Source: Podarcis pityusensis
Lineage: Eukaryota
DNA: 64,000 nt
NCBI GenBank assembly: GCA_964106645.2
Contig: OZ067043.1
Strand: one strand, 5' to 3'
Part shown: positions 14,223-29,888 of the stretch, piece by piece
Layout of the letters: every line of letters begins with the position of its first letter
Numbering within the stretch: the first letter of the stretch is position 1
Made by a program: the position numbers and the translations under genes
The notes under the pieces: generated by a model
What the model saw: the letters and a program-made list of their open reading frames with translations, nothing else
Database searches by the model: none
What the model was told of the DNA's origin: nothing

Positions 14223-14718
14223 CAGGGGAAGGAACTTCAGGCCCACCAGCTGATCCATTTTTTCCCTGAAACCACACACAGGTGTTAGTCAGGTGATGTC
14301 ACTCCAATGAGCGGGTGATGTCAGCTGTGATGGGTGGGGCAAGCAGATCCCTGCAGAAAGCAGGCTTGAGCCACCTGCTCATCAGCTAATAGCTGGTGCT
14401 TTTAATCCTACCAGGTTTGGCTGTGTGTGCTAGTTCCCTGCATTCACACAATCAAACACCTACAGACAGCAGGAGTGACCTCTATGTACAACAGCTGATG
14501 CATGGAGAAGTCAACCCTGCTCACTTTGACCACAGGAGGTTCCAAGTGCCCAACAGCCAGCTAGCTGTGGAGCATTTGGGAACCGCTATGCAATGTGTTT
14601 TCACAGGTAGGCAATACATAGTGTAAGTCATAAAGATATGTAGTTGACAAGTGATTTCCCTGCTCACCTGTCAAAGATAGCCCATGCAGTGTGGAGCCAA
14701 AAAGATTCCCCACCCCTG
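14223..14718. mobile_element. Non-autonomous hAT (Charlie-like) element, 496 bp
   Basis: CAGGGG...CCCCTG termini; 8-bp TSD TTCTAAAT / TTCTACAT (7 of 8). Confidence 0.75.
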
Positions 14719-23513: not shown

Positions 23514-23591
23514 CCACCCAGCCCTCATCCTCATGATCCACCCTCCAATAACAAAGCAGAGTGTGCACAGGAAGGAGGAAAATCAGTTTCG
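23514..23591 (+). CDS. SGIP1: SGIP1 exon 4 (78 nt, probably alternative): PPSPHPHDPPSNNKAECAQEGGKSVS
   Basis: ccattccag|CCACCC...GTTTCG|gtaagg; similar to mammalian [24 protein letters not shown]; symmetric phase 0; weak A-rich acceptor. Confidence 0.92.
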
Positions 23592-24964: not shown

Positions 24965-25021
24965 AAGAGAACCAATGGTGCTCCAAATGGGTTTTATTCA
25001 GAGATTGACTGGGAAAGATAT
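24965..25021 (+). CDS. SGIP1: SGIP1 exon 5 (57 nt): KRTNGAPNGFYSEIDWERY
   Basis: tattacag|AAGAGAACC...AGATAT|gtaagt; matches KKSNGAPNGFYAEIDWERY. Confidence 0.97.
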
Positions 25022-29202: not shown

Positions 29203-29257
29203 AATTCACCTGAGCTTGATGAAGAAGGCTACAGCATCAGACCAGACGAACCAGGCT
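29203..29257 (+). CDS. SGIP1: SGIP1 exon 6 (55 nt): [18 protein letters not shown](S), start of the AP2-activating segment
   Basis: gctgcaccag|AATTCACCT...CCAGGCT|atatcctt; DEEGYSIRP motif shared with the FCHO linker; followed by a U12 donor. Confidence 0.96.
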
Positions 29258-29712
29258 ATATCCTTCATGGTCAGTTTTACAACTGAGTTTGCAAACTCTG
29301 AAACAAGTGTGGGTTCAAGTGTGGCCACCTGCTGCCATCCTCCCTACCCCTGGATGCCCCTGAAACATCAGTATCTCAAGTTTATTTTATTTTATATATT
29401 TATCAAATGTATATCCCGCCCCTCCTCCCAAAGGAGCCTAAAATGTTCAAGAGGCTTTATGAATGAGAAGATAGTGGCCATAAGTAAAATTTAATTTTAA
29501 GCAATCATTATAAAAAGAAAAAAGGAGCCAACACTCATGCCTGGTGTTGGAGGCAGTGATGGTCTGGGTGGGGACCAAGAAACTGAAATTGATCCTGATG
29601 GAGGTATTCTCTGGAATTTGTAAATCTATTTTTATTATTGTTGGCCCATGCCGATCAGTTCCAAAAGTTATATTTTGTGATTCAACAACATTTCTCTTTA
29701 ACTGTGATCTAC
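29258..29712 (+). other. SGIP1: U12-type (minor spliceosome) AT-AC intron, 455 nt
   Basis: 5' site ATATCCTT; branch-site-like TCTTTAAC at 29695-29702, ending 10 nt before the end of the intron; terminal AC at 29711-29712; splicing gives T+CT ACC AAA GGA = STKG as in mammalian SGIP1. Confidence 0.93.
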
Positions 29713-29888
29713 CTACCAAAGGAAAGCACTTTTATTCCTCAAGTGAATCTGAAGAGGAAGAGGAGGCACACAAGAAATTCAACATTAAGATTAAGCCCTT
29801 GCAGTCTAAAGATGTTCTTAAGAGTGCGGCAACCGTTGATGAACTGAAAGCCTCTATAGGCAACATTGCACTTTCGCCATCTCTAGTG
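29713..29888 (+). CDS. SGIP1: SGIP1 exon 7 (176 nt): (S)[58 protein letters not shown]
   Basis: Within ORF 29544..29918; near identity to the recalled SGIP1 AP2-activating region; ends GTG|gtaagc. Confidence 0.97.

Follow-up and report, generated by a model that had tools for sequence, protein, structure and literature searches.

An ancient AT-AC minor intron in lizard SGIP1, with an in-frame GT-AG pair, probably dormant, that enters public gene models

Twintrons are introns of the U12 and the U2 type that are spliced alternatively and lie at one place in a gene, and in the available part of the human survey one third of the 18 cases described are shifted, SGIP1 not being among the 18 (PMC3564746). 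Cryptic U2-type sites near U12-type sites are also used in normal human cells in some genes, with 21 switching events in 16 genes of control cells, four of which used both U2 sites (PMC6800510, available part). A review distinguishes, in the sections accessible, competition between U2 and U12 splicing from cryptic sites visible only when minor splicing fails (PMC8329584). U12-type introns often escape gene predictors according to U12DB (PMC1635337, accessible text), and SpliceAI is described as often calling wrong GT or AG sites beside true U12 sites (TOGA2 preprint, accessible text). SGIP1, FCHO1 and FCHO2 are minor-intron genes in human and mouse according to the supplements of PMC6717393, as far as these are available, and the available part of the PMC6800510 catalogue names the same three genes. 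The former source places the human SGIP1 minor intron at chr1:66642865-66643543 (679 nt) and its mouse counterpart at chr4:102869809-102870548 (740 nt), within the supplementary tables accessible. Our literature search, covering main text, returned no paper linking SGIP1 or FCHO2 to the minor-intron or twintron question, and the supplement of PMC11347168 contains no SGIP1 or Podarcis row.

The stretch analysed here, 64,000 nucleotides of Podarcis pityusensis DNA (the window), carries the endocytosis gene SGIP1 on its + strand. In a protein search the peptide of 29715-29888 was 100% identical to Podarcis and Lacerta SGIP1, and by tblastn against the window the Podarcis RefSeq SGIP1 isoforms were placed exon by exon from 14498 to 61145. 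The original prediction had placed the locus in the AP2-activating region of this gene, an assignment upheld by the identity to lacertid SGIP1 and by the alignment to the FCHO2 linker, whose N1 region (chains in PDB 7og1 and 7oi5) aligns to the exon at 29203..29257. The AP2-activator segment is mouse SGIP1 97-184 (PMC4215536, available part). Elsewhere in the gene, the exons at 23514-23591, which has a weak pyrimidine tract (6/16), and 24965-25021 are both skipped in some lacertid RefSeq isoforms, and 14498-14606, ending CAG/GTAGGC, corresponds to an alternative N-terminus present in one RefSeq isoform of Podarcis raffonei (P0022). The features around the junction are as follows, a slash marking a splice boundary.

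29203..29257, + strand: SGIP1 coding exon, number six of those mapped in the window; tblastn identity of 100% with a Podarcis RefSeq isoform
29258..29712, + strand: U12-type AT-AC intron, 455 nt, phase 1; motifs as in the catalogued human/mouse SGIP1 minor intron
29258..29266, + strand: U12 5' splice site ATATCCTTC, directly at the exon end; human/mouse GCT/ATATCCTTT
29267..29277, + strand: latent U2-type donor ATG/GTCAGTTT (GT at 29270-29271); 7/11 U1 matches
29695..29702, + strand: U12 branch-point sequence TCTTTAAC; human/mouse SGIP1 branch point TCTTTAACT
29711..29712, + strand: AC 3' splice site; restores STKGKHFY, junction without shift ambiguity
29719..29721, + strand: latent acceptor AAG/GA in exon 7, formed by the codons AAA GGA (Lys-Gly); the AC is followed by no earlier AG
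29713..29888, + strand: SGIP1 exon 7, ending LSPSLV, with the rest of the AP2-activator segment; 100% to lacertid SGIP1, PDB alignment

The consensus of the U12 branch point is TCCTTAAC, from which TCTTTAAC differs by one mismatch, its core being the same as in human and mouse SGIP1. Measured from the last A of this motif, the AC ends after 11 nt and the latent AG after 20 nt. At the other end, ATATCCTTC at 29258 agrees with the U12 AT-AC 5' splice site ATATCCTT. The intron ends in TCTTTAACTGTGATCTAC (TCTAC at 29712), and the AT-AC join gives EPG-STK-GKHFY, restoring the conserved STKGKHFY found in all 32 lacertid RefSeq isoforms. The human and mouse introns share the gene, the donor GCT/ATATCCTT and the branch point TCTTTAACT, and mammalian proteins have the same STK join, whereas the lizard intron is shorter (455 nt, against 679 and 740 nt). 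Judged by its gene and its motifs, 29258..29712 is the lizard ortholog of the catalogued human/mouse SGIP1 minor intron. The earlier reading of a U12-type AT-AC intron is borne out by the SGIP1, FCHO1 and FCHO2 entries of the two catalogues, and the same intron occurs in both paralogs. Five further RTATCCT matches were present on the + strand of the window, none of them at a mapped exon end. Two short high-copy repeat fragments lie within the intron, at 29397-29440 and at about 29538-29600; the first matches many other genomic places, and unrelated contigs pile up there.

A second pair of splice sites overlaps this intron, and every coordinate predicted for it checks. The GT (29270-29271) lies 12 nt into the intron and the AG (29720-29721) 9 nt into the exon, both offsets being multiples of three, and their join is in frame with a net gain of 3 nt, yielding a YILHG-type product instead of STK. 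U12 and U2 sites thus lie at one location, the U2 sites 12 and 9 nt downstream, and as in Drosophila prospero and the 18 human twintrons, U2-type sites sit near AT-AC U12 sites; the geometry here is shifted, or interlocked, whereas the prospero twintron is nested and enhancer-regulated. Both isoforms of the prospero and human twintrons are known as transcripts and are accompanied by conservation, whereas here no use of the join was found among the RefSeq 'isoform X' models retrieved, nor any wide conservation.

This arrangement could be a lineage-restricted shifted twintron, in which lacertid U1 would act on the GT at +12, U2 would reuse the U12 branch point and the AAG would be used in a steady minority (at least 5%) of transcripts, a reading that we consider unlikely; its product, held equally unlikely, would be a YILHG isoform one residue longer. 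The strength of the sites bears on it from both sides. By a plain count of matches to the U1 complement, the donor was equalled or bettered by 5.9% of the 3506 GTs in the window and matched U1 at least as well as 7 of the 15 real SGIP1 donors, which makes it a fair donor and counts against dormancy of the pair; its C at +3 was seen in none of those 15. The stretch before the AG, described earlier as AG-free and fairly pyrimidine-rich, indeed runs for 52 nt with 63% pyrimidine, longer than before 97% of AGs, which again counts against dormancy, although its length is largely explained by 43 of the 52 bases being the end of the real intron. Two further points count in the same direction, namely 11/16 pyrimidines at the latent acceptor (median of real acceptors, 10.5) and a branch point 20 nt from the AG. 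Against use stands the AAG itself, since the 14 real SGIP1 acceptors were all CAG (13) or TAG (1), as identified by a picker that preferred YAG among the AGs beside each mapped exon start.

Joining the AT donor to the AG at +9 (29257/29722) makes a TGA stop from T and GA, and a transcript that kept the intron would meet a stop 9 codons past EPG. A join of the GT donor with the AC (YILH-A-TK) keeps the frame; this candidate was rejected, being present in 0 of the 270 retrieved proteins among the matches listed. Two stops beside an open GT-AG join would suit a selected conditional bypass, silent normally and taking over in frame when minor splicing is impaired, thereby averting retention or decay, and activation of cryptic U2 sites close by is the usual result of minor-spliceosome defects (PMC6800510 and PMC8329584, available parts). 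We give such a safety valve very little chance: it should be conserved and is absent in mammals and in the paralogs, and Sgip1 is missing from the alternative-splicing tables accessible for a U11-knockout, morpholino and patient study (PMC8034651), a result confined to mammals without this GT and to patient cells that barely express SGIP1.

The expectation by chance was simulated with a fixed U12 donor, random intron DNA and the coding exons of the window, with 20,000 trials per setting. In 10-16% of trials an open in-frame GT/AG pair fell no more than 15 nt from both ends, and in 36-37% no more than 30 nt, which makes such a pair commonplace in itself and favours the dormant-pair reading; with a donor of at least 7/11 U1 matches these fractions fell to 0.5-1.2% and 2.5-3.0%, respectively. 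A donor this good (0.5-1.2%) is therefore above chance for one intron, which counts against the dormant-pair reading. Among roughly 700 minor introns per genome, however, about 4-8 comparable pairs would be expected, so that the pair appears usable in principle and unremarkable across the genome.

RefSeq isoform models draw on RNA-seq. Protein models were separated by source. In total, 270 proteins were gathered from searches (the best 120 of 2693, the best 120 of 2188 and 36 of 36 matches) and from cluster listings, the search giving the best 120 of 2188 being ranked by YILHG likeness and hence biased toward that register, and they were sorted by hand into 120 RefSeq 'isoform X' models, 60 contig ORFs and 90 other annotations. 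Among the matches listed, 119 of the 120 RefSeq 'isoform X' models read xT[KR]GK and none YIL, the last one having no upstream-exon join; STK was the reading in every one of the 32 lacertid RefSeq isoforms, which come from three species. The latter sets hold many cassette-exon variants, and the absence of the YILHG form from them (0/32) weighs against a shifted twintron. The contig ORFs spanning the junction all showed the AT-AC join (31 xTK and 1 SSK of 32 among the matches listed); since they cluster with mammalian proteins, they are no test of the lizard site. Of the 60 contig ORFs among the matches listed, 27 others entered from the end of the intron and one read through to a stop. At the level of these predicted proteins, the U2 join was thus present in 0/32 lacertid RefSeq isoforms and 0/32 mammal-clustering contig ORFs, and STK was nearly invariant among the retrieved SGIP1 proteins. 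Eight short records (five bats, a pangolin, a pigeon and one contig ORF; P0216, P0219, P0220, P0222, P0238, P0239, P0240 and P0248) read into the SGIP1 intron and stop, and are either retained-intron transcripts or truncated models.

The other annotations were of a different composition, with 33 AT-AC joins, 44 YIL joins, 6 models without the upstream join and 7 without exon 7 (90 among the matches listed). The 44 YIL models had 22 different endings in 32 species, and the +12/+9 register accounted for 11 models from 6 of these 32 species, again among the matches listed. Six were Podarcis models with YILHG, five of P. muralis and one of P. lilfordi, from two annotations other than RefSeq; the same register, as YILYG, appeared in models of budgerigar, Amazona, kakapo and Turnix, which counts against dormancy. 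The six Podarcis models, together with the GT retained in two relatives, speak for a used site, as do the share of human twintrons that are shifted and the human switching events with both U2 sites. Set against this is the way in which the joins are distributed. All five UniRef-only P. muralis models read YILHG and none STK among the matches listed, an all-or-none pattern; P. muralis, budgerigar, egret and swift have STK from one source and a YIL join from another; Eudromia models contain two different YIL joins; and no annotation source gave both the STK and YIL forms for one species among the matches listed. RefSeq is not immune, as a tinamou model without an isoform label (XP_025892955.1) has a YIL join.

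The pattern of 22 joins fits software that fails at the AT-AC intron and takes whichever open pair the species offers. In this the locus resembles cryptic U2 sites beside U12 introns elsewhere, where a nearby GT or AG that is idle under normal conditions is picked by predictors, and differs from typical cryptic sites in that the pair keeps the frame with a net change of one residue, for which reason the wrong SGIP1 model looks intact. The UniProt P. muralis proteome went into the P. lilfordi annotation together with ab initio predictors, EvidenceModeler and, as a point against dormancy, short- and long-read RNA, brain being one of the organs collected (PMC10214862, accessible text). With that proteome as evidence, its YILHG model is likely not independent and may be inherited. 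The original prediction had foreseen that a GT-AG-only predictor would wrongly pick this join, and the six public Podarcis models carry exactly that product; its proposal of a used spliceosome-choice isoform found no support, given 32/32 STK among lacertid RefSeq isoforms, a register that is one of 22 predictor joins, a GT missing from mammal read-throughs and no near in-frame pair in either paralog.

Conservation of the GT at +12 had been put forward as a check in sauropsids. Contigs from DNA-like runs of two related organisms showed no difference before 29344 (the first 94 intron-start bases compared) and kept the GT; as both relatives are close, one with 9 differences in 359 bases, this retention says little about selection, a point against the shifted twintron. 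Four sequencing runs compared with the intron yielded no splice joints over a stretch with too little exon to show either junction; the two presumed RNA runs started beyond the first 95 intron bases and none reached 29618-29710, so these runs have no bearing on use. Further afield, bases +9 to +14 were deduced by proxy from the read-through peptides of predicted proteins. The lizard has GGTCAGT at +12 to +18, whereas a GT at +13/+14 was possible in 0/7 mammal-type read-through records (six mammals and one ORF), where positions +12 to +14 encode Leu, Phe or a stop and so leave no room for a GT at +13. Read-through peptides of many birds give Tyr-Cys at this place, with which a GT is possible, though with T at +12 a stop would result, provided that the exon runs on with GA like that of the lizard; passerine models have Trp-Phe, Trp-Gly or Cys-Thr there, and skink, tegu and anole models took other joins. 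The strongest point in favour of a twintron is that the register recurs, as YILYG, in Turnix and parrots; a single T-to-G change from the common bird sequence could explain it.

The paralogs in this genome, an FCHO2-like and an FCHO1-like gene, are interrupted at the corresponding position by AT-AC introns of 636 and 712 nt, respectively, and a same-place AT-AC intron in all three muniscin genes suggests that the intron likely predates their split. The FCHO2-like exon has an AG at +9 like that of SGIP1 exon 7; unlike in SGIP1, the nearest GTs of the paralogs (+13 and +16 nt kept) share no frame with an AG nearer than 31 nt, and every in-frame pair within 40 nt costs 31 nt of exon, so that neither has a near in-frame GT/AG pair. 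In the FCHO2-like intron (L005, 942-1577, - strand) a GTAATG donor sits 13 nt inside the intron, out of frame with the AG that lies 9 nt into the exon. The AT-AC junction of this intron can slide by 3 nt and leave the product unchanged, a possible source of error for aligners; the FCHO1-like junction here, unlike the FCHO2-like one, has no such ambiguity. Table S7 of PMC6717393, as available, gives for mouse Fcho1 and Fcho2 cryptic 5' and 3' sites in pairs, used at 100% wherever a tissue has data. We rejected these entries as support for a twintron, as 100% use looks like a coordinate shift, a reading that for mouse Fcho2 would follow from the 3-nt slide of the FCHO2-like junction. SGIP1 itself is absent from the accessible part of the alternative-splicing table of that study, although expressed in cerebrum, in mammals that lack this GT. 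With 7/7 mammal-type read-throughs without the GT and 2/2 paralogs without a near pair, the arrangement is not conserved across vertebrates: the likeness to twintrons is in geometry only, and membership of that class fails on conservation and is unproven on use.

Taken together, the evidence makes it likely, in our judgement, that an ancient SGIP1 AT-AC minor intron is accompanied here by a dormant, lineage-restricted cryptic GT-AG pair, and that YILHG is mainly a gene-model error. Minor-intron removal involves U11 at the 5' splice site and U12 at the branch point. On this established biology, U11 would bind ATATCCTTC and U12 would bind TCTTTAAC, the AC 11 nt downstream would be used, and the STK join would result, the minor spliceosome thus likely removing the SGIP1 AT-AC intron. 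The latent AG would be present because the protein has Lys-Gly codons, and the latent GT may have arisen where intron sequence drifts freely, immediately after the fixed U11 site. Use of the pair by the major spliceosome would be confined to trace amounts or to failure of minor splicing; an unselected leak of this kind under stress belongs to the dormant-pair explanation, the conditional bypass being distinguished by its claim of a selected function. A point against dormancy is that, for some genes, normal human cells do use cryptic U2 sites next to U12 sites.

The position of the junction raises a functional question. It falls in the AP2-activator segment, just after the stretch aligned to FCHO2 N1 and between the N1 and N2 blocks, and the N1-N2 linker has been modelled against the beta2 400-410 loop of closed AP2 (PMC9054013, available part). 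An altered linker may affect AP2 activation. A regulated switch tuning AP2 activation, by analogy with the prospero twintron that changes its homeodomain, would draw on this location and on the near invariance of STK, and seems to us highly improbable. It requires use of the GT-AG join, and none was found among the RefSeq 'isoform X' models retrieved; the alignment shows the FCHO2 linker to be already one residue longer at this junction, and density after N1 is weak and variable in crystals (PMC9054013, available part).

The dormant-pair explanation carries a warning, namely that for many birds and lizards the AP2-activator segment of the public SGIP1 protein is probably incorrect, and there a wrong join that keeps the frame escapes notice and may be copied between annotations. 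A more speculative reading, which we regard as quite improbable, is that lacertids and, separately, parrots and a buttonquail gained a usable U2 donor 12 nt inside the ancient intron, which with the shared branch point and the coding AG would form a young shifted twintron, a bypass that keeps the frame and rewrites the N1-N2 linker of the AP2 activator. In the same quite improbable scenario, this twintron would represent U12-to-U2 conversion by sliding, caught early. A join in actual use would mean a young twintron that some lineages possess and others lack; if true, this would offer a direct test of twintrons as steps in the conversion of minor to major introns, located in a linker for which models of its part in AP2 opening exist.
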